Under the pieces are notes generated by a model that was given only the letters and a program-made list of their open reading frames with translations, was not told the origin of the DNA and ran no database searches. A stretch of DNA of 64,000 bases from an uncultured Methanosarcinales archaeon (GTDB lineage: Archaea; Nanobdellota; Nanobdellia; Woesearchaeales; CAZYIM01): the NCBI GenBank assembly GCA_964647565.1, contig CAZYIM010000005.1, positions 30,967 to 94,966 on the forward strand. The letters run 5' to 3'. This document shows positions 790 to 39,759 of this stretch, piece after piece. A program made the translations under genes and the position numbers. How positions within the stretch are numbered: the stretch's first letter is position 1; each line of letters begins with the position of its first letter.

Positions 790-2088
790 ATGGTGGGTTC
801 TGGTAAAGTTAAAATTTTTTTAAAGGGCGAGGTGATCGAAGGACACATAATGCCTCGCTCTGATTCAAATTTTCTCGTTCTAAAGCTTGATAATGGATAT
901 AATATAGGTATTGACAAATCTACAATCAAGAAAATGGAAGAGATTAAGGGAAATAAAGCTGTTAAAGACGAAAAGATCAAGAAAATCGTCCCAAAAAAAG
1001 GCCTGCCTAATGTTTCTATACTACACACAGGAGGCACAATCGCCTCAAAAGTTGATTATAAGACTGGTGCGGTCATCTCAAGATTCACTCCAGAAGAAAT
1101 TGTTTCCATGTTTCCTGAACTTAAAGAGATTGCAAATATCAAATCTAGACTTATTGGCAACATGTGGAGTCAGGATATGAGATTTTCTCATTATAATGTT
1201 ATTGCTAAGGAAATAGAAAAAGAAATAAAAGCTGGAGCTGATGGAGTGATTGTCACACATGGCACCGATACTCTCCATTATAGTTCTACAGCTCTCGCAT
1301 TTATCCTAGAAGACCTAACTATCCCTGTATTGTTAGTTGGATCCCAAAGAAGTTCTGACAGGGGCAGCAGTGATGCAGGTATGAATATCATAGATGCAGC
1401 ATATTTCATTACCAAATCTGATTTTTCAGAAGTTGGTGTTTGTATGCACAATTCTTCCAGCGATGATTTCGCAGCCATCCTACCTGCCACCAAAACAAGA
1501 AAATTACATACCAGCCGACGTGACGCATTCAAGGCAATCAATTCCAAGCCATGGGCTTTGGTCGATTATAAATCCAAGAAAATTAAATATCTGGATAAGG
1601 GATTTTATAAAAAATCGAAATCTAAAAAATTAAAGCTTAGATTATTTAATGAAAAGATTAAGGTAGGCATCTTAAAGCAATATACCAATATGACCGCAAA
1701 TGAATATCTTTTCTTTAAGAACTATGATGGTCTAGTCATTGAGTCGACAGGCTTAGGCAACCTTCCTGTCACAAAAAAAGATGATCTAACCAAAGAGAGC
1801 GACAAGATCTTCAAAGCTCTAGAAGAGATGATCAAAAAAGGATTGATTGTTGTTTTAAGTCCTCAAACCATATTCGGAAGACTGAATATCAATGTCTATG
1901 AAAACGGAAGGAGGCAGCAAGAGATCGGCATCCTGGGTAATTACAATGATATGACTACAGAAACCACCTTCATCAAACTGGCTTGGCTGTTGAGCAACTA
2001 CAGCAAGGCTGAGACCAAGAAACTCATTCTAAAAAACCTAAGAGGAGAAATTAACGAAAGGATTGAGTTTGAAAAAGAATTCATCTAA
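790..2088 (+). CDS. gatD: Glu-tRNA(Gln) amidotransferase subunit D
   Basis: LKLDNGYNIG N-domain, TGGTIASKVDYKTGAV, HGTDT, GSQRSSDRGSSD, HTSRRDAF. Confidence 0.96.
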   Translation: MVGSGKVKIFLKGEVIEGHIMPRSDSNFLVLKLDNGYNIGIDKSTIKKMEEIKGNKAVKDEKIKKIVPKKGLPNVSILHTGGTIASKVDYKTGAVISRFTPEEIVSMFPELKEIANIKSRLIGNMWSQDMRFSHYNVIAKEIEKEIKAGADGVIVTHGTDTLHYSSTALAFILEDLTIPVLLVGSQRSSDRGSSDAGMNIIDAAYFITKSDFSEVGVCMHNSSSDDFAAILPATKTRKLHTSRRDAFKAINSKPWALVDYKSKKIKYLDKGFYKKSKSKKLKLRLFNEKIKVGILKQYTNMTANEYLFFKNYDGLVIESTGLGNLPVTKKDDLTKESDKIFKALEEMIKKGLIVVLSPQTIFGRLNINVYENGRRQQEIGILGNYNDMTTETTFIKLAWLLSNYSKAETKKLILKNLRGEINERIEFEKEFI

Positions 2089-2105
2089 TTCCTAGTGCAA
2101 TATTG

Positions 2106-2170
2106 GAAAGATTTATAAATACAAACTTCTTAACTTTCTGAAATCACAGAAAATTCAGAAATTTCAGTAA
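2106..2170 (+). promoter_or_regulatory. BRE/TATA promoter with palindromic operator for the adjacent regulator
   Basis: GAAAGATTTATAAA at 2106-2119; TTTCTG-N6-CAGAAA at 2135-2152, with further CAGAAA/CAGTAA copies at 9-nt period. Confidence 0.6.
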
Positions 2171-2173
2171 AGA

Positions 2174-2665
2174 ATGAACACAGACAACCTCGATAAGGAA
2201 TTCCAGGAATTTTTCTTTCAGATTAGTACAGGCATGGGCCATGAGGGGGTCATCTCAAAGATTATAGGCATTATGTTCCTAGAACCCAAAGAAATCTCTC
2301 TTGAGGAACTTGCTAAAAAGACAGGCTATAGCCTTTCTGCAGTCAGCACAGCCATGAAACTCTTTGAAAACTGGAACACCGTCAAGAGAATCAAGAAACC
2401 AGGCTCAAGAAAGAAGTATTTCTATATGGAAAAAGACCTAAAAAAATTGGTCAAGGGTAAATTCAAGAAGATGAGAGAAGTTTACTTTAGTCCTGCGAAG
2501 ACCAAACTCCCTGTTCTGATTGAGAAATATAGAACAAAACTTAAAAACTCAAAAGATGACTATAGTAATAAGAAGCTAAATATATTGAAGAACTATCATG
2601 CCCAGATTATTGTAATGGATAAACTTATGGAAGACTTTATGAAAAAGGTGGAAAGAATTGACTAA
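2174..2665 (+). CDS. GbsR/MarR-family transcriptional regulator
   Basis: wHTH ISLEELAKKTGYSLSAVSTAM followed by KPGSRKKYF wing. Confidence 0.85.
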   Translation: MNTDNLDKEFQEFFFQISTGMGHEGVISKIIGIMFLEPKEISLEELAKKTGYSLSAVSTAMKLFENWNTVKRIKKPGSRKKYFYMEKDLKKLVKGKFKKMREVYFSPAKTKLPVLIEKYRTKLKNSKDDYSNKKLNILKNYHAQIIVMDKLMEDFMKKVERID

Positions 2666-3368
2666 ACTAGACTGTGGAGAAACCATCATCGAACTAAAGA
2701 ATGTTTGGAAGATATACCAGATGGGTAATGTGGAGGTACATGCCCTTCGAGGTCTGGATCTTAGTGTGAAAAAAGGAGAGTTTCTGGCAATAATGGGACC
2801 TTCTGGAAGCGGCAAATCAACGGCTATGAACATGGTGGGCTGCCTGGATATCCCGAGCAAAGGCCAGATATTGCTATGCAACCAAGACATCTCCCAGCTT
2901 GGAGAATCTGAGCTCGCCCAGATTCGTGGAAAGAGAATAGGATTTATTTTCCAGACCTTCAACCTTATTAATACTCTTACTGCTAAGGAAAACATAATGT
3001 TGCCAATGGTTTTTCAGAACAAATCCGCAAGTGAAAGAGCGAAACGTGCAGAAAAGCTCTTGAAAATGGTTGAGCTTGATGAAAGGATGGATCACAAGCC
3101 AACAGAACTTTCAGGGGGACAGAGGCAGAGGGTAGCTATTGCACGATCTTTGGCTAATGAACCAGAAGTCATCTTGGCAGATGAACCGACAGGCAACCTG
3201 GACAGCAAGACAGGTCATAATGTGCTCGATTTCCTAAAAAAACTCCACAAGGAAAAAGGTACAACAATCGTAATGGTCACACACGATTCAGATGTGGCAA
3301 AAGGAGCCCAGAGAATTGAATTTCTCAGGGACGGTAAGATTATTAAGGATCAAATTAAGAAGAATTGA
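2658..3368 (+). CDS. ABC transporter ATP-binding protein (LolD/MacB type)
   Basis: [36 protein letters not shown]. Confidence 0.95.
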
Positions 3369-32829: not shown

Positions 32830-33822
32830 CTACCTGTTCTTAGAGACCGCATAATTGGCTTTTTTATCCCCTGTCAACCCTTTGTTTATTTCTATGTTTT
32901 CTATGTTCTGAGGACCAAGATCCTCAATCATGCTGGAAAACTCCTGGTTCTTCAAGAACAGCGCTGTAGTTGGGTTATTACCAATAGCCTTGGCAAACCT
33001 ATCTATAGACTTGAGTTGTGTACGTCTCCGCTCGCATTCATCCTTCACAGCACCAAGCTCTCTTTGGGCGTCCTTAATAATTCTCTCGCCCTCAGGTCCA
33101 GCACTCACAACATAAGATGGTCTCTTAACTCTTAGGGGTTTAACACCAGTCACATTTATACCCCATACATCTTCAAAGCTCTTCTGTTCAGTAAAGCCAG
33201 AAACAACACCGTCTTTATATACAGGAATTCCTCCTAATTTGAAGTCCTTTATATAATTTAAACAACTCTCTGAAAGTTCCTGCTGCCGGGCTTCTATGTA
33301 ATCAATGGTCTTGGTCTGAAGATATGATCTAACCAGTCCGTCCAAGTTATGTTCCATAAACTTCATATCTTCGGGTCTATGTTCCACAAATCTCGCCCTA
33401 ACTGCATCCCAGGTTTTTCCTTGCTCATAGGTTATGAGCATATTCTGGATTACAATCTGGTTCACACCATTTTTATTCTCAGCTGTCATGATGCTCTGCT
33501 GGGTTTCTGCTTCAAGTGTCAACCTGTCCTGACTCTTTTGTTTGCCATCAACAGTATACATATCTTCTTCAGCCAGGTTTACATCTTTGGGGAAATGCAC
33601 CTGCTTTTGCATATGGGATACCTTATCCTGATCTTTCTCTCCAAATACATTGAACCATCTCGTACCAGGACCCATCCCTTCCCACTCAACCGAATTGTTC
33701 CAGTTAGTGGATATAGTGGACTCATATTTAGTGGGTCTGCTGCATTTAGAGATAGAACAGACGAAGTATAGTGCTGTAAAAGCCAATGGCGTCAAAACCG
33801 CAACTTTTGTTTTTGTTTTCAT
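32830..33822 (-). CDS. SPFH/band-7 (stomatin/HflKC-like) membrane protein
   Basis: N-terminal TM; DGLVRSYL...WGINVTGV....KRP; coiled coil; GNNPTTALFL; GGAGGT SD before ATG 33822. Confidence 0.7.
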   Translation of the reverse strand: MKTKTKVAVLTPLAFTALYFVCSISKCSRPTKYESTISTNWNNSVEWEGMGPGTRWFNVFGEKDQDKVSHMQKQVHFPKDVNLAEEDMYTVDGKQKSQDRLTLEAETQQSIMTAENKNGVNQIVIQNMLITYEQGKTWDAVRARFVEHRPEDMKFMEHNLDGLVRSYLQTKTIDYIEARQQELSESCLNYIKDFKLGGIPVYKDGVVSGFTEQKSFEDVWGINVTGVKPLRVKRPSYVVSAGPEGERIIKDAQRELGAVKDECERRRTQLKSIDRFAKAIGNNPTTALFLKNQEFSSMIEDLGPQNIENIEINKGLTGDKKANYAVSKNR

Positions 33823-33835
33823 TCTGTTTACCTCC

Positions 33836-34660
33836 TCACTCCACATAGACCTTAAGGCTCAGATGCTGTTCATCAGCCTTTTTGGTCACAGCTCTTGCAG
33901 CTGTCAGTACGCCCTTGGTTGCAAGATAGTCTACCACAACAGGATGAAGTTTTCCTATAACTTGGTTGTACTCTGCATCAACAAGAGCTCTTTCCTTATT
34001 TGCTTCATCTATGTCGTTCTGGGCCTGGTTTCTTGCTTCTCTCAAGATAAGATTTCTCTGTCTCTCAAGATCTGCAAACACCGCATCTCTTTGGGGAGAG
34101 ATGTTACCGGGGCACACATACCAAATGTTGTTGTTGACACCAAAGTCCCGAGCAAGATCGCTCTCATAAAGCTCTACATGCACCTGCTGATAGATCGGCA
34201 GCTTCCCATTTGCCTTAGCAAGGTTCTCATTGGCAATCTCATTTCTTTCATACTGCAAAACAGTTGATCTTGCAATACCATCAACCTGCTTTGCCAGTTC
34301 ATCAAGTGCCTTATCACCCCATTTGTAGAACCAGTTGGTCAACGATGCTGTATCCTGTGCCAACTTGGTATAAACCACCATATCAAGGGTTATGTTCTTG
34401 TTGTCTTTGGTTACGTAGTGTTGGTCCTCCTCTGTCCCATGCTCGAGCGGCAGATCTATTGCAGTAAGGCCTGCCCAATGTGATTTTACACCAGGCTTTG
34501 CAAGCTTGAATTGTGGCGCCTTATATATTTCCAGCTCTCCGCTCAATCTCTTCCTTATACCTATGTTCCCCAACTGAATATCTGCACACGAGGTCAATCC
34601 CATAGCCAGTGCAGATGTTAATAATAGAGCACCAGCTCTGCTTATTTTCTTCTTACTCAA
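33836..34660 (-). CDS. SPFH/band-7 lipoprotein-like protein
   Basis: TTG start after GGAGGT; LTSC lipobox-like motif; VTKDNKNITLDMVVY; DGIARSTV; FGV; Ala/Glu-rich coiled coil. Confidence 0.75.
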   Translation of the reverse strand: MSKKKISRAGALLLTSALAMGLTSCADIQLGNIGIRKRLSGELEIYKAPQFKLAKPGVKSHWAGLTAIDLPLEHGTEEDQHYVTKDNKNITLDMVVYTKLAQDTASLTNWFYKWGDKALDELAKQVDGIARSTVLQYERNEIANENLAKANGKLPIYQQVHVELYESDLARDFGVNNNIWYVCPGNISPQRDAVFADLERQRNLILREARNQAQNDIDEANKERALVDAEYNQVIGKLHPVVVDYLATKGVLTAARAVTKKADEQHLSLKVYVE

Positions 34661-34727
34661 TTTTTTTACCTCCTAGGTTATATACTTCTATCTAGGTGCA
34701 AGCAGTTTCATACCTGCTACCGCGTTG

Positions 34728-35579
34728 TCAGTTTCTCCTTTTGGCCAACTCTTTCATCACATATCCCCCTCGGTCTTTGGCCAGAAAATATTGGTTTGCC
34801 TTGATGAAAAGAGAGTTGAATCTACCCTCTCTTTTACCAGGACCATATTGGTCTATCAGATGCAGCTCCAAGAAAGTCTCAAACTTAGGAGCATTTGTCA
34901 GCTTAAAGGCCTCTTGGTTGATCGGATCCACAGATCTGACTTTCTTGTAGTCAGCCCAGAAATCATCTGGACGTTCGTATTGTGAGAGAAGCTTGTAAGC
35001 TTCTGCCTCTAACAGTTCGCCATCCATTATTTCCTGAAGAGCCCTGTGCCGATCCTCTGTCTGAATTTTCTTGGCAAGATTCTTGGCAGTAGTAAAATAC
35101 TTGGAAGCAGCATTGCCAATCTTCTTGTTATCCATGCTAGGCCAGGCATAAGTATAGAGCAGCCAACCAACGTATATTTCAAAGACAGCACCAACTCCTA
35201 AAAATAAAAGGTGCCGGTGCAGCATGCCCCTGAAAACAGCCAATTCCAAAATATTCAGACCTATTACAGTACCTGCGATGATAGGCATGGCTTTTCTGCT
35301 TTGGCTTTTACGTTCTACCTCCTGCTTCTTGGCATCATAGACATCATAAGCAGGTAAAAGATAACTCTTGACAGCAGATTCTAACAAAGAGATATGGTCG
35401 TTGCTTATCACCTCGGCACCGATCTCTGCCTTCATCATCTCCTGTCTAAAATACTCATTTACCCGCTCTGGCCTATTAGTGACCTCCTCTGTCTCAAATA
35501 TCTTAAATAAATCCACTGCCACATGCTCAAGGCTTTTCTCATTTATTGAGGAAGGGATATGATTCTTTTTTCTCTTCAT
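34728..35579 (-). CDS. Hypothetical two-TM membrane protein
   Basis: GAGGTGA SD; two central hydrophobic helices flanked by charged helical regions. Confidence 0.75.
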   Translation of the reverse strand: MKRKKNHIPSSINEKSLEHVAVDLFKIFETEEVTNRPERVNEYFRQEMMKAEIGAEVISNDHISLLESAVKSYLLPAYDVYDAKKQEVERKSQSRKAMPIIAGTVIGLNILELAVFRGMLHRHLLFLGVGAVFEIYVGWLLYTYAWPSMDNKKIGNAASKYFTTAKNLAKKIQTEDRHRALQEIMDGELLEAEAYKLLSQYERPDDFWADYKKVRSVDPINQEAFKLTNAPKFETFLELHLIDQYGPGKREGRFNSLFIKANQYFLAKDRGGYVMKELAKRRN

Positions 35580-35583
35580 AGTA

Positions 35584-36795
35584 TCACCTCTCGTGATACT
35601 GCTCTTTCAATAGTCCTGCAGGCTTTTCCACTTCTCCAAGGCCAAGTTTTTGTATCATATCTTGGACATTCTCATGAAAGATTCGCTCGTTGTGTGCATA
35701 TAATGTCACAGCTTCTGTCAGTTCATCTTTTGCTTTTTCCAATGTTTCAGGCTCAAAGAATGGATTCACCAAAACAAAGCCTACTCTGTCCAACATCACC
35801 CTTGTGCCAAGAGAATTGAAGATTTGGACATCATTCATCACATCTTTGTATGTGAAGTATGCATCCATAGCCCTGTCAGATATACCCTGTGCCTGTAACA
35901 GATGAAAGGTGTTGTATGCCAGATGTTTGGTGTAGTGAATATCCACATCAAGTTCCATGTGCTGGGCAGACATACCTTTAATGGTTTCCTCAAACTGCTG
36001 TATCTGAAGGTCCATTCCCTGCATCATGGTGTTAGCACCTTTAACTCTCAATCCTGATTCAAGATACGTGTCCTTGAAGTCGGCCATCGTCCTCTGCAGA
36101 TCTGTCTTGACAACATACAGGTCTGGTTTTACATCGTCACCACCATCAATTCTCTGTATCAACTCAAGACACGCGAAAAGACCTGCATCATGGCACAATG
36201 CGAGTTGGTTCCTGAAATCTTTCTTGGAATAATCCTCGTCTCGCAGGATCTTATCCATAATAGTGTAAAGCCAGTCCAACTTGTTCAATTTGGCTTGCAC
36301 TATTTTATAGCTCAGGCTATTGTCCTTGATGTCCTCTGCAGCCTCTTTGGCAATGTCAAACATCAGCCCTCTCTTATTCCTTAGAATCCCTAAGCTGCCG
36401 TGTACAGCACCTTTATGTTTGGTCTGTGCATTGTACAGATCAAGAATAATGTTCCCAAGCTTTTCAGGCGTCAACTGAGGTCCTTTGTACAGACCTCGCG
36501 TCATAGTTGTCAGTACCCTTTGGAAACCAGTGCTTGAGGGGTGCTTTATAGCAGCTTTGAACTTTTCCAGTGTGGTTGTCGAATCCGAGAGGTATCTTTC
36601 TGCCTGGTTGGCAATTGTGGACTGCAGAATCATATACTGCTTACACTTTTCATTATCTGCGGCACCTCTATCCAGTTCTGCCTGGGTTAAAGCCTCGTTC
36701 GTCTTTATGACCTCTACAAGGTCCTTGTCCTGCTTGTTATCAGATTTAGCAAGACCTCGCATGGTCTCTATAAATGTAGAGTCTTCTTTCTCCAT
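35584..36795 (-). CDS. All-helical coiled-coil protein, tentatively TelA/KlaA (toxic anion resistance)-like
   Basis: 403-aa ORF with AGGAG SD; C-terminal FEPETLEKAKDELTEAV resembles the TelA C-terminal pattern by eye only. Confidence 0.5.
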   Translation of the reverse strand: MEKEDSTFIETMRGLAKSDNKQDKDLVEVIKTNEALTQAELDRGAADNEKCKQYMILQSTIANQAERYLSDSTTTLEKFKAAIKHPSSTGFQRVLTTMTRGLYKGPQLTPEKLGNIILDLYNAQTKHKGAVHGSLGILRNKRGLMFDIAKEAAEDIKDNSLSYKIVQAKLNKLDWLYTIMDKILRDEDYSKKDFRNQLALCHDAGLFACLELIQRIDGGDDVKPDLYVVKTDLQRTMADFKDTYLESGLRVKGANTMMQGMDLQIQQFEETIKGMSAQHMELDVDIHYTKHLAYNTFHLLQAQGISDRAMDAYFTYKDVMNDVQIFNSLGTRVMLDRVGFVLVNPFFEPETLEKAKDELTEAVTLYAHNERIFHENVQDMIQKLGLGEVEKPAGLLKEQYHER

Positions 36796-36843
36796 GTTAT
36801 CAACTCCTTTGTTTTTTTATTTTCAAAAACTAAATCCTTCTTT

Positions 36844-37005
36844 TCAGTAGATGCCCCACATCCAATCTTGTAGTGTTGCTTTTTCTTCTTCGGTATCACC
36901 TCCGTTGAAAATCCAGCTCTTTCTATCTGGACATAGTTTATCATTTCCGCTTCTACGGTTGGATATGCCAATTCTAATCAGCAATCTATTACAGCCTCTA
37001 TTCAT
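36844..37005 (-). CDS. 53-aa small ORF (MNRGCNRLLIRIGISN...LQDWMWGIY)
   Basis: GGTGAG SD upstream; lies in the leader of the SPFH operon. Confidence 0.35.
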   Translation of the reverse strand: MNRGCNRLLIRIGISNRRSGNDKLCPDRKSWIFNGGDTEEEKATLQDWMWGIY

Positions 37006-37037
37006 TTCATCTCACCATTTTTTTATCTAGTAAAACT

Positions 37038-37300
37038 TCAGTAGGATGTTGTTGTTTGCACCTCCATCTAGTTTAATCCTCTCTGAGCCACAGTGTAGCC
37101 TCCCCGCTAGTTAGGGAGGCAACTTGGGCTTCAGCTTAGGTCTTGGCCCCTGTCGGGGTATGCCATCAGCTAAACAGTTTCACCTCATTTTTACCAACTT
37201 CTTAGGGGTTTTGGGGTAGAGCATATTTTTGCAATCACCTCCGACCAATTTACACCCGTGGCCGAGTTTATAGATATAGATAGGTTAAAGAAATATAAGA
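37038..37300 (-). promoter_or_regulatory. Structured leader with three SD-led micro-ORFs
   Basis: ORFs 37224-37180, 37166-37131 and 37067-37038; hairpins GCCTCCC/GGGAGGC and CCCC-TGTC-GGGG; TATA-like box near 37292-37300. Confidence 0.45.
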
Positions 37301-37436
37301 AAGTTTTTAGGAAAAATTTAGGCTTTGACTATAAAAATTTTAATAATATTAGATTAAAAATGAAAATAAATCTGATTGTTAAATTAAGCTAATCCCAGTA
37401 ACAAACCTTAAAAACTCCATTTTCTTCCCATTTTGT

Positions 37437-38645
37437 ATGAAGTTTGCTCATATGGCAGATGTGCATATCGGAGCCTGGAGGGATCCTAAGCTCAAGGAAT
37501 TAAGTGTTAAAGCGTTTACCAGTGCTATTGACCTGTGTATTGAGAAGAAGATTGATTTTGTGCTCATATCCGGCGATCTTTTCCACACATCCATCCCGTC
37601 TATTGATGGATTGAAAGCTGTTGTCAAAAAGCTGAAACAGTTGAAGAATAAAAACATCCCAGCCTATATCGTTGCAGGCAGCCACGATTTCTCTCCAAGC
37701 GGAAAGACCATGTTGGATGTTCTTGAAGAAGCAGAGTTGGTCAAGGATGTATTCAGAGGAGATATCAAGGACAATCAAATCTTGTTGAAGTTCACCAAGG
37801 ATGAGAAGACAGAAACTTTGCTTACAGGCATGCTAGGTAAGAAAGGAATGCTTGAAAAAGAGTATTATGAAAGCATAGGCAACAGGGAAGAACTGGAAAA
37901 ACAAGAGGGCTTTAAGATATTCCTTTTCCATACTGCCATCACTGAACTAAAGCCCAAAGAATTAGAAAAAATGGACTCCAACCCCATCTCATTTTTACCC
38001 AAGGGCTTCAACTATTATGCTGGCGGCCATGTTCATATCGTTGAACAGAAATCTCTGGAAGGCTACAAGAACGTTGTCTACCCAGGTCCAGTCTTCCCAG
38101 CCAACTTCGCAGAGCTCGAGAAGCTGGAAACTGGCGGCATTTACATCTTTGAGGATAACAAAACCAGTTATGAGCCAATTAAGATAATCAACACGTGTTC
38201 AATAAAAGTAGATGCAGAACACAGGACACCAGAACAGGTTGAAGCAGATATTCTACAAAAGATAGAACAACAGGAATTCATAAATACTATTCTACTTCTG
38301 AGGGTTGAGGGTAAACTCAAGTCTGGAAGACCCTCTGACATTGATTTCAAAAAGATATTTGCAGAAGTCTATGAGAAGGGTGCTTTTTTTGTTATGAAAA
38401 ATACTATAAAACTAACCTCAGAAGAGTTTGAGGAGATCAAAATTACTTCTTCATCTGTCGATGAGCTCGAGGATACTCTTATCAAGGAGCACATTGGTCA
38501 GATCAATACCAGTTTCTCTGACAGAGAAGGGGATATAATCAAGAGTCTGATGAAAATTCTTGGTGAAGACAAGAATGAGGGTGAAAGAGTTCATCAATAT
38601 CAAGCAAGATTGAAATCAGAAGTTCAGAAGCTACTAGATCTTTAA
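37437..38645 (+). CDS. mre11: Mre11 DNA repair nuclease
   Basis: ADVHIG, SGDLFH, AGSHD, LFHT, AGGHVH, VYPG phosphoesterase motifs. Confidence 0.9.
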   Translation: MKFAHMADVHIGAWRDPKLKELSVKAFTSAIDLCIEKKIDFVLISGDLFHTSIPSIDGLKAVVKKLKQLKNKNIPAYIVAGSHDFSPSGKTMLDVLEEAELVKDVFRGDIKDNQILLKFTKDEKTETLLTGMLGKKGMLEKEYYESIGNREELEKQEGFKIFLFHTAITELKPKELEKMDSNPISFLPKGFNYYAGGHVHIVEQKSLEGYKNVVYPGPVFPANFAELEKLETGGIYIFEDNKTSYEPIKIINTCSIKVDAEHRTPEQVEADILQKIEQQEFINTILLLRVEGKLKSGRPSDIDFKKIFAEVYEKGAFFVMKNTIKLTSEEFEEIKITSSSVDELEDTLIKEHIGQINTSFSDREGDIIKSLMKILGEDKNEGERVHQYQARLKSEVQKLLDL

Positions 38646-39698
38646 CTACATCTTTTCAAGAACACTTAAGACCTTCAACTCTAATGGCTTCTTTCTATTA
38701 TAGTTCATGAACAAACTCTTAAAGCCATTCTTGACTAGCATCTTCAAATCAGCTCTTGTAAGTCCCAGATTGGTTGAAGCCAACCACATTTCTTTGGTTA
38801 TGTTTGTATTAGATATCAGTCTATTATCTGTATTTATTGTAACCCTTAAATTTTCTTGCAAGAATGTCCTTAATGGGTGGGATTGGTAACTTGCAGAAGA
38901 ACAGGTATGGATGTTACTTGATGGACATACTTCAATACCTATCCTGTTATCTCTAATATAGTTCAATAGTTTTTCGTTCTGAAGAACCTTGGTCCCATGT
39001 CCGATCCTTCTTGCATTCAGATAGTTGATTGCATCTGCGATTGCAGTAGCATCACATTCCTCTCCTGCATGTATGGTAACATAGACAAAATTATCATGAA
39101 TTATTCTAAAGATATCTGCAAAGCTCCTTGGCTCATTACCTAATTCAGGACCTGCCAGATCAAAACCTACGACACCTTTATATTGATAGTTCACAGCCAT
39201 CTCAGCTGCAATCTCAGTCATGTGCTTATCAGAACGCATACCACTTAGGATCAGTCCTGTATGGATTCCGAATTTCTTCTGAGCTCTTTTCAGACCTCTC
39301 AACACCGCTTCGATGATAAAGGGTAGTTTCATACCATATTTCATGTAGTTGGTCGGTCCAAATCTTACTTCAATGCACCAAACATTCTCTCTTGCAGCGT
39401 CTTCTGCAAGTTCATATGCAGCCCGCTCAAGTGCTTCTTCTGTGCATAGAACACTTTCTGTTATATCAAATGATTTTAGATATTGAGCTAATGAGTGACA
39501 TCCATTGTCCTGCATCACCACTAACTTTCTCAATTCTTTGGGATTGTAGGTAGGAAGTTTGACCTTGTTTTTCTTGGCCAACTCAATAAGGGTTTTTATT
39601 CTCAATGATCCGCCTATATGGACGTGAAGATCTGTTTTAGGAAGTTTCTTAATCCATTCAAGAGTTGGCGGTCTGTTATCTGATGGCTTTATGAACAT
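38646..39698 (-). CDS. add: Adenosine deaminase
   Basis: PKTDLHVHIGGS, GFDLAG, TIHAGE, RIGHG, EVCPSSN, NTDN; start placed at MFIKP. Confidence 0.93.
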   Translation of the reverse strand: MFIKPSDNRPPTLEWIKKLPKTDLHVHIGGSLRIKTLIELAKKNKVKLPTYNPKELRKLVVMQDNGCHSLAQYLKSFDITESVLCTEEALERAAYELAEDAARENVWCIEVRFGPTNYMKYGMKLPFIIEAVLRGLKRAQKKFGIHTGLILSGMRSDKHMTEIAAEMAVNYQYKGVVGFDLAGPELGNEPRSFADIFRIIHDNFVYVTIHAGEECDATAIADAINYLNARRIGHGTKVLQNEKLLNYIRDNRIGIEVCPSSNIHTCSSASYQSHPLRTFLQENLRVTINTDNRLISNTNITKEMWLASTNLGLTRADLKMLVKNGFKSLFMNYNRKKPLELKVLSVLEKM

Positions 39699-39759
39699 AT
39701 TACTAGAAACTAATAGAAAACTGTTTATAAATCTTTTGTTTTTTGCCACTTAAAAGTAG

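Follow-up and report, generated by a model that had tools for sequence, protein, structure and literature searches.

Long non-coding leaders exist in some archaea, for example as the long 5′ UTRs of methanogens such as Methanosarcina. In bacteria, two kinds of RNA are known for their Shine-Dalgarno (SD)-like signals: leader-peptide attenuators and other upstream-ORF (uORF) leaders, in which short ORFs and overlapping hairpins precede an operon, and the CsrB/RsmZ-type sponge RNAs, which carry repeated SD-like GGA motifs. To our knowledge, leader-peptide attenuators have not been established in archaea, and a 2026 paper on upstream ribosome-binding sites reportedly deals with bacterial ones. Archaea combine two initiation modes, some of their mRNAs having an SD-bearing leader and others no leader at all (reviewed in PMC7531240).

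Here we analyze a 64,000-nt stretch of archaeal DNA (the window; positions 30967-94966 of contig C5), in which an SD-rich region sits in a 641-nt gap (36796-37436) separating two divergent genes. We tentatively propose, with a probability of roughly 0.4, that this region is a lineage-specific, long (~510 nt) and structured 5′ leader of an SD-led four-gene SPFH cassette.

Results

Genomic setting

The window belongs to a 2.68-Mb metagenome-assembled genome of 86 contigs, 86.9% complete and with a GC content of 38.4%. The genome is archaeal; its 16S rRNA, SRP RNA (C4:72228-72550, 94.4 bits, RF01857) and RNase P RNA (C4:43480-43776, 89 bits, RF00373) all lie on contigs other than that of the window, and neither RF01857 nor RF00373 yields a match at the SD-rich locus, both mapping elsewhere. 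Among the genomes searched it is the sole representative of its family, and its order-level relatives have small genomes of 0.6-2.1 Mb. The DNA runs in which the stretch occurs come from two studies of marine or seawater metagenomes, and no RNA run was listed as containing it; contigs of four DNA runs covered it piecewise with zero differences.

On the minus strand the gap is followed by the four-gene cassette (Table 1), whose proteins gave no matches in PADLOC or NCBIfam; three of the four lack any Pfam, NCBIfam or PADLOC family, and the SPFH/Band 7 protein of 274 aa has a lipoprotein-like N-terminus. On the other side, the Mre11-like gene stands alone with no Rad50 after it, the usual archaeal arrangement being an mre11-rad50 pair, and is followed by a minus-strand gene (38646-39749) that appears adenosine deaminase-like from its sequence motifs. 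Directly before mre11, the AT-rich DNA contains a 44-aa GTG ORF on the plus strand (37258-37392), which has no promoter-like site positioned for it; its high hexamer coding score of 27.1 (0.60 per codon) probably stems from base composition, namely from A/T-rich Lys/Asn/Ile codons.

Table 1. Features of the gap and of the genes around it, in window coordinates
Feature	Position	Strand	Remarks
Four-gene cassette	32830-36795	minus	403 aa without family, 283 aa, 274-aa SPFH/Band 7 lipoprotein-like, 338 aa; downstream of gap
403-aa gene	35584-36795	minus	flanks gap; no Pfam family
67-aa TTG ORF	36768-36971	minus	other frame; overlaps ORF4 and start of 403-aa gene; without SD
SD and ATG of 403-aa gene	36793-36807	minus	GGAG at -12; from sequence and genome spacing rule
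T5 run	36825-36829	minus	30 nt before 403-aa gene; possible terminator/attenuation point or degenerate TATA
ORF4	GGTGAG 37016-37011; ATG 37005; end 36844	minus	53 aa
Second GGAGGTGAT	36895-36903	minus	inside ORF4; no start codon after it; 10-nt exact repeat D4
T4 run	37032-37035	minus	after core; possible weak archaeal termination signal, putative function
Third GGAGGTG motif	37059-37065	minus	overlaps ORF3 start; no start codon at working distance after it
ORF3	GAGGA 37081-37077; ATG 37067	minus	peptide MEVQTTTSY
GC-rich core (~52%)	37081-37266	minus	long-range closing stem, 37266-37251 with 37097-37081
Strong hairpin GCCUCCCU-loop-GGGGAGGC	37098-37120	minus	-16.7 kcal/mol, z -3.81, 0/200 shuffles
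Hairpin enclosing whole ORF2	37130-37174	minus	-16.0 kcal/mol, z -1.86, 7/200 shuffles
ORF2	GAGGTGA (SD2) 37186-37180; ATG 37166	minus	motif 13 nt before ATG; peptide MAYPDRGQDLS
ORF1	GGAGGTGA 37242-37235; ATG 37224	minus	peptide MLYPKTPKKLVKMR
SD1, GGAGGTGAT	37234-37242	minus	perfect 9-nt complement of 16S 3′ end
BRE/TATA-like element TATTAAAATTTTTATAGT	37328-37345	minus	matrix score 10.4; predicted start ~37307-37305
Mre11-like phosphoesterase gene	37437-38645	plus	flanks gap on other side

A cluster of anti-16S motifs

A sequence-only reading of the gap had described four SD/ATG pairs with their peptides and two stems, all of which are present in the sequence and the ORF list. The SD-like motifs complement the 3′ end of the 16S rRNA as read from this genome, and GGAGGTGAT does so exactly. 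Within 340 nt and on one strand, GAGGTG occurs four times (at 37241, 37186, 37064 and 36902), GAGGTGA three times and GGAGGTGA twice, as compared with 964, 289 and 65 copies, respectively, on both strands of the entire 2.68 Mb; two of the 26 genomic copies of GGAGGTGAT likewise fall in the gap. The GAGGTGA triple and the GGAGGTGA pair are the sole such clusters in the genome, and only one denser GAGGTG cluster exists, at C4:80991-81762 on the plus strand, inside a glycine-rich coding gene. The SD-like cluster is thus beyond chance and the only non-coding one of its kind in the genome. The C4 gene itself encodes a repetitive protein with long GGxGG runs.

Neither duplication nor mobility accounts for the region. 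Local alignment of its two halves scored 24 against 22.4 ± 3.0 for shuffles, 93 of 300 of which did as well; as the halves are not duplicated, the M-x-Y-P start that ORF1 and ORF2 had been noted to share, although present, traces to a common UACCCC hexamer and nothing further. Likewise, we found no second genomic copy and no tandem repeat that would point to a repeat or mobile element, and the short 10-mer repeats in the region are near chance level, except for the one that contains the SD motif.

Initiation signals and the case for a long leader

The way in which this archaeon starts its genes can be read from sequence, with a BRE/TATA signal (nCGAAAAATTTATAAA) at -30 and an SD of the GGAGGTGA family at -12. 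We surveyed 2033 non-overlapping ORFs of at least 150 aa, 2011 of them with usable upstream sequence. TTTAWA peaks at -30 from the ATG, where 139 genes have it and the background is 9.0 per position; the consensus of a promoter matrix refined on these sites is nCGAAAAATTTATAAA, corresponding to a BRE plus TATA. Given the peak, many first genes are leaderless. Upstream of the 2011 long ORFs, GAGGT peaks at -12 (48 genes) and is found in 6 to 39 genes across -16 to -9, as opposed to one gene at -17 and two at -20 (background 1.58 per position), so that its functional range in this genome is -16 to -9.

Divergently transcribed first genes, a crude set in which gaps may conceal small genes, give the same two classes. 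Among 618 such genes, 285 of the 463 without an SD have a site scoring at least 8 at the leaderless position, and for 129 of the 155 with an SD the nearest site of that score lies at a leadered position. Within these 155, the site is 6-20 nt further upstream in 48 genes, 21-60 nt in 34 and more than 300 nt in 15; it lies within 5 nt of the ATG position in seven, and 19 genes have no such site. The Mre11-like gene is a textbook leaderless case, with a site score of 12.0 and a predicted start at 37437, its own ATG. The SRP RNA gene has an upstream promoter site scoring 16.0, and non-coding RNA promoters in this genome therefore resemble gene promoters.

The 403-aa gene is of the SD type, and at -42 to -23 all matrix scores upstream of it are 0.2 or lower. 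The matrix was seeded on TTTA[AT]A and thus penalizes variant TATA boxes; TTTAGT is found at -39 of this gene and at -30 of its orthologue in a related genome (G014), and it shows no positional peak in the present genome. The best promoter score upstream of ORF4 is -5.6. In the whole of 36700-37520, the BRE/TATA-like element TATTAAAATTTTTATAGT is the only minus-strand site scoring above 5, the next best (3.3) having a predicted start at 37271. The element is near-palindromic, its plus-strand mirror scoring 10.7. The start it predicts, near 37307, falls at the beginning of the region marked in the sequence-only reading. Its position fits a leader of ~510 nt, which we take as weak evidence for one: 298 of 2000 dinucleotide shuffles of the AT-rich segment 37290-37436 (~15%) also reach 10.4, and 962 of the 1777 sites scoring at least 10 genome-wide have no ORF of at least 40 aa at leaderless distance.

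Attenuation-type control, which had been suggested for the locus, finds no counterpart in terminator-like sequence: 36600-37600 contains no hairpin followed by a U-run, and no T-run follows the strong hairpin at 37120-37098. The T4 and T5 runs that do lie inside the supposed leader could halt transcription before the cassette. We also considered an RNA of the opposite strand, carrying anti-SD motifs, and regard it as less likely; the plus strand has no promoter-like site upstream, and the G·U pairs of the closing stem described below turn into mismatches on that strand.

Coding potential of the gap

Measured against the spacing rule of the genome, ORF3 (GAGG at -14), ORF4 (GGTGA at -11) and the 403-aa gene have properly placed SDs. 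ORF1 (GAGGT at -17) and ORF2 (-20) fall outside the working range despite having the strongest SD-like motifs, and the GGAGGTG motifs at 37065 and 36903 are without a start codon at working distance, so the picture of four SD-led ORFs holds for ORF3 and ORF4 in spacing and fails for the first two. Hexamer coding scores of -4.0, -5.9 and -8.9 mark ORFs 1, 2 and 3, respectively, as non-coding; a shuffle null for such scores was uninformative, being dominated by in-frame stops. None of the three frames of the core (37280-37040) scores as coding; in the 3′ part (37010-36860), two frames do so mildly. The proposal of a long leader with uORFs is partly supported: the 403-aa gene has an SD and lacks a promoter-like site nearby, which speaks for the leader, whereas ORF1 and ORF2 are mis-spaced, ORFs 1-3 score as non-coding, and no conservation was found.

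We next weigh whether the gap instead holds one or more fast-evolving small protein genes, namely ORF4 or the 67-aa TTG ORF, with the SDs as their ribosome-binding sites or relics thereof, as in the high-turnover gaps between core genes of small-genome archaea. The SD of ORF4 is near the genome optimum, its hexamer score of 9.0 exceeds that of 99.3% of off-frame or antisense pieces, the surrounding 37010-36860 segment is the mildly coding-like one, the 67-aa ORF was recorded by a gene caller, and the 368-nt gap of a metagenomic relative (L012) likewise contains a 52-aa ORF. The same score of 9.0, however, places ORF4 at only the 5th percentile of real 54-codon coding pieces, and ORF4 has no homologue at E ≤0.001 among 1.84 billion representative proteins; it thus offers neither homologues nor a genome-typical coding signature. 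The 67-aa ORF matches only itself in the protein collection, the two candidates share sequence in different frames, no likeness between ORF4 and the L012 ORF is evident when the translations are judged by eye, and the GC-rich core, which has most of the SD motifs, does not code in any frame. Together these observations make a small-gene origin quite improbable. The L012 ORF (1637-1795, plus strand) has a hydrophobic N-terminal stretch.

A decayed gene was likewise considered and rejected. The stop-to-stop frames are all short, and a 246-aa protein encoded upstream of the G014 cassette has left no trace here (tblastn E 0.87), which also counts against the small-gene view.

Predicted RNA structure

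GC content rises to 52-53% at 37050-37199, against 19-27% in the adjacent promoter region, and the core is closed by a long-range stem that contains two G·U pairs existing on the minus strand only. The 191-nt core folds at -62.9 kcal/mol (z -1.92; equalled by 9/200 shuffles). For 261 nt, z is -0.76 on the minus strand (36/200) and -1.08 on the plus strand (33/200), and for 511 nt it is -1.51 (8/100). Overall folding is hence not clearly superior to that of shuffles, and its thermodynamic support is modest.

Of the two stems proposed earlier, GCCTCCC/GGGAGGC, or GCCUCCC/GGGGAGGC in the RNA, beats every shuffle (z -3.81, 0/200). In this strong hairpin an anti-SD-like CCUCC locks an SD-like GGAGG, the GGGGAGG/CCUCCC pairing having a predicted probability of 0.99. 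The 5′ stem CUCGGCCA/UGGUCGGAG does not stand out (-7.7 kcal/mol, z -0.35, 69 of 200 shuffles as good), and had been supposed to cover part of SD1. In the predicted ensemble of a 37307-36770 transcript, SD1 pairs with UACCCC (37218-37213) with a probability of ~0.94, so that its occluder, if any, would be codons 3-4 of ORF1 rather than the 5′ stem. The local SD1/UACCCC hairpin is predicted at -10 kcal/mol (z -1.47). A K-turn or C/D-box interpretation of UGAUGG/CUGA was considered by eye and found no support from tools.

The core could alternatively be a stand-alone small non-coding RNA of ~190-270 nt, beginning at ~37307 or 37270, ending in the T4 run (37035-37032) and acting in trans, in which case the cassette would use an unrecognized promoter of its own. 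Like many stable RNAs, the core has a closing stem (37266-37251/37097-37081), whose G·U pairs fit the minus strand only, and the start predicted from the second-best promoter site (3.3), 37271, lies right at its foot. Behind the core comes a T4 run, and the core's GC content of 0.513 ranks near the 90th percentile among 341 non-coding stretches, in a tail that includes the SRP RNA locus, and the SRP RNA itself, with its site score of 16.0, illustrates gene-like promoters for such RNAs. On the other hand, the core fold has a z of only -1.9, a T4 run is a weak stop signal, and the 403-aa gene would be left without a recognizable promoter. A search with Rfam release 15, which the sequence-only reading had suggested, returned no family at the gathering threshold in the 64-kb window and, at E ≤10, two chance-level matches (18.1 versus 55 bits and 15.7 versus 59 bits). 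ARAGORN gave no match. A covariance model built from the single core sequence, and thus of limited reach, matched only itself in its own genome, with no paralogue, and nothing in two sets of 150 genomes each, one from the order and one from the phylum. We therefore regard an independent small RNA as unlikely.

Distribution among relatives

In searches with blastn against 41 genomes, the region gave only matches of 25-78 nt in its AT-rich part, and the core matched no phage record. The 403-aa protein has just two database relatives, at 44% and 43% identity. Of 401 genomes of the order, its own among them, two others gave a match, namely G014 (E 4e-139) and, marginally, G163 (E 9.8e-4), with no relatives in genome contigs or viral contigs; metagenome contigs yielded none with the 403-aa alignment as query and one locus (L012, gene 1861-3048) with protein P0001.

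All four cassette proteins are conserved in G014, a genome from another family of the same order (L011; G014:C13 1780-5696, minus strand), at 33-47% identity. There the cassette is preceded by the 246-aa ORF, an 85-nt gap and a BRE/TATA-like CGAAAATTTAGT at about -30, and in L012 a TATA-like box lies near the start. The SD-rich element is absent from the DNA upstream of both cassettes, which differs from that of the window; with no homologue of the core in 300 genomes either, the SD/ATG pairs show no conservation in orthologous leaders.

Such a pattern could also arise if the gap were non-functional junction DNA left by insertion of a patchily distributed cassette, with the motif cluster and the hairpin as relics or chance products. 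Consistent with this, the cassette is clear in one and marginal in one more of 400 other genomes of the order, its context being different each time, and its GC content of ~0.41-0.49 lies above the genome mean of 0.384; the gap itself shows no conservation and no family membership, and the folding and promoter evidence is weak. Such DNA would nonetheless sit oddly in a compact genome, where ORFs of at least 150 aa alone cover ~83% and the median divergent gap (from the crude gene set) is 186 nt, and it would leave both a motif cluster that is a genome-wide outlier and a hairpin with a z of -3.8 to accident. We consider an origin as inert junction sequence doubtful.

Discussion

Our preferred reading remains that of a long leader. 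Transcription would start near 37307 from the BRE/TATA-like element (37345-37328), and the resulting ~510-nt leader would be an exception in a genome with mostly leaderless first genes. Its 5′ half would form a GC-rich folded domain, in which G-rich SD-like tracts (GGAGGUGA) alternate with C-rich ones (UACCCC, CCUCCC); because the two kinds of tract are predicted to pair, most SD-like motifs would be strands of helices rather than working ribosome-binding sites, and ORFs 1-3 would be by-products. The 3′ half may permit translation of ORF4 as an upstream ORF, and expression of the cassette would depend on read-through past the T4 and T5 runs (37035-37032 and 36829-36825) and on how accessible the SD before the 403-aa gene is. 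The motifs and their excess, the strong hairpin, the non-coding statistics of the core, the SD of the 403-aa gene and the absence of a canonical promoter beside it are observed; the transcription start, the read-through into the cassette and any regulation we infer. Against a long leader, the first cassette gene in both relatives has a TATA-like box ~30 nt upstream and no SD-rich element, and what precedes it is another gene or a short gap unlike that of the window.

A bolder possibility, which we rate as very remote, is that the non-coding leader or small RNA acts as an SD mimic, capturing the 30S subunit through four to five motifs that complement the 16S 3′ end almost perfectly. It would then serve either as a 30S standby or loading platform for an SD-led cassette in a mostly leaderless archaeon or, in trans, to titrate 30S subunits, and the C-rich tracts (UACCCC, CCUCCC) would be switchable lids.

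The locus is a single orphan, and its value is that of a flagged candidate rather than a discovery. Should the long leader be real, it would represent a rare case of 5′-leader-based control in a small-genome, mostly leaderless marine archaeon, placed before an operon that combines an SPFH/Band 7 protein with three proteins of no known family, and its dense anti-16S complements that are not used as starts would provide a handle on how such archaea use or avoid SD pairing.

Compared with the CsrB/RsmZ sponges, the locus likewise gathers several SD-like motifs within a few hundred nucleotides, but these are full anti-16S complements, number only four to five and are mostly predicted to be paired rather than displayed in loops. 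The 86.9%-complete genome contains no match to the CsrA family (PF02599), and a CsrB-like mechanism is unsupported since no CsrA was found. Like bacterial leader-peptide attenuators and uORF leaders, the locus places short ORFs and SD-like motifs ahead of an operon, with hairpins that overlap SD and start regions; it differs in that its two best SDs are mis-spaced and in having no stem-plus-U-run terminator, no evident run of regulatory codons and no conservation. As for the long 5′ UTRs of the Methanosarcina type, leaderless starts prevail in the present genome, which comes from an order of archaea with small genomes, and the resemblance implies no homology. A further comparison is with the dual-mode archaeal mRNAs (PMC7531240): both initiation modes are found in this genome, with the 403-aa gene of the SD type, whereas the predicted leader of ~510 nt far exceeds the 6-60 nt typical for SD-bearing first genes here and contains several extra full-length SD-like motifs that do not stand before start codons.
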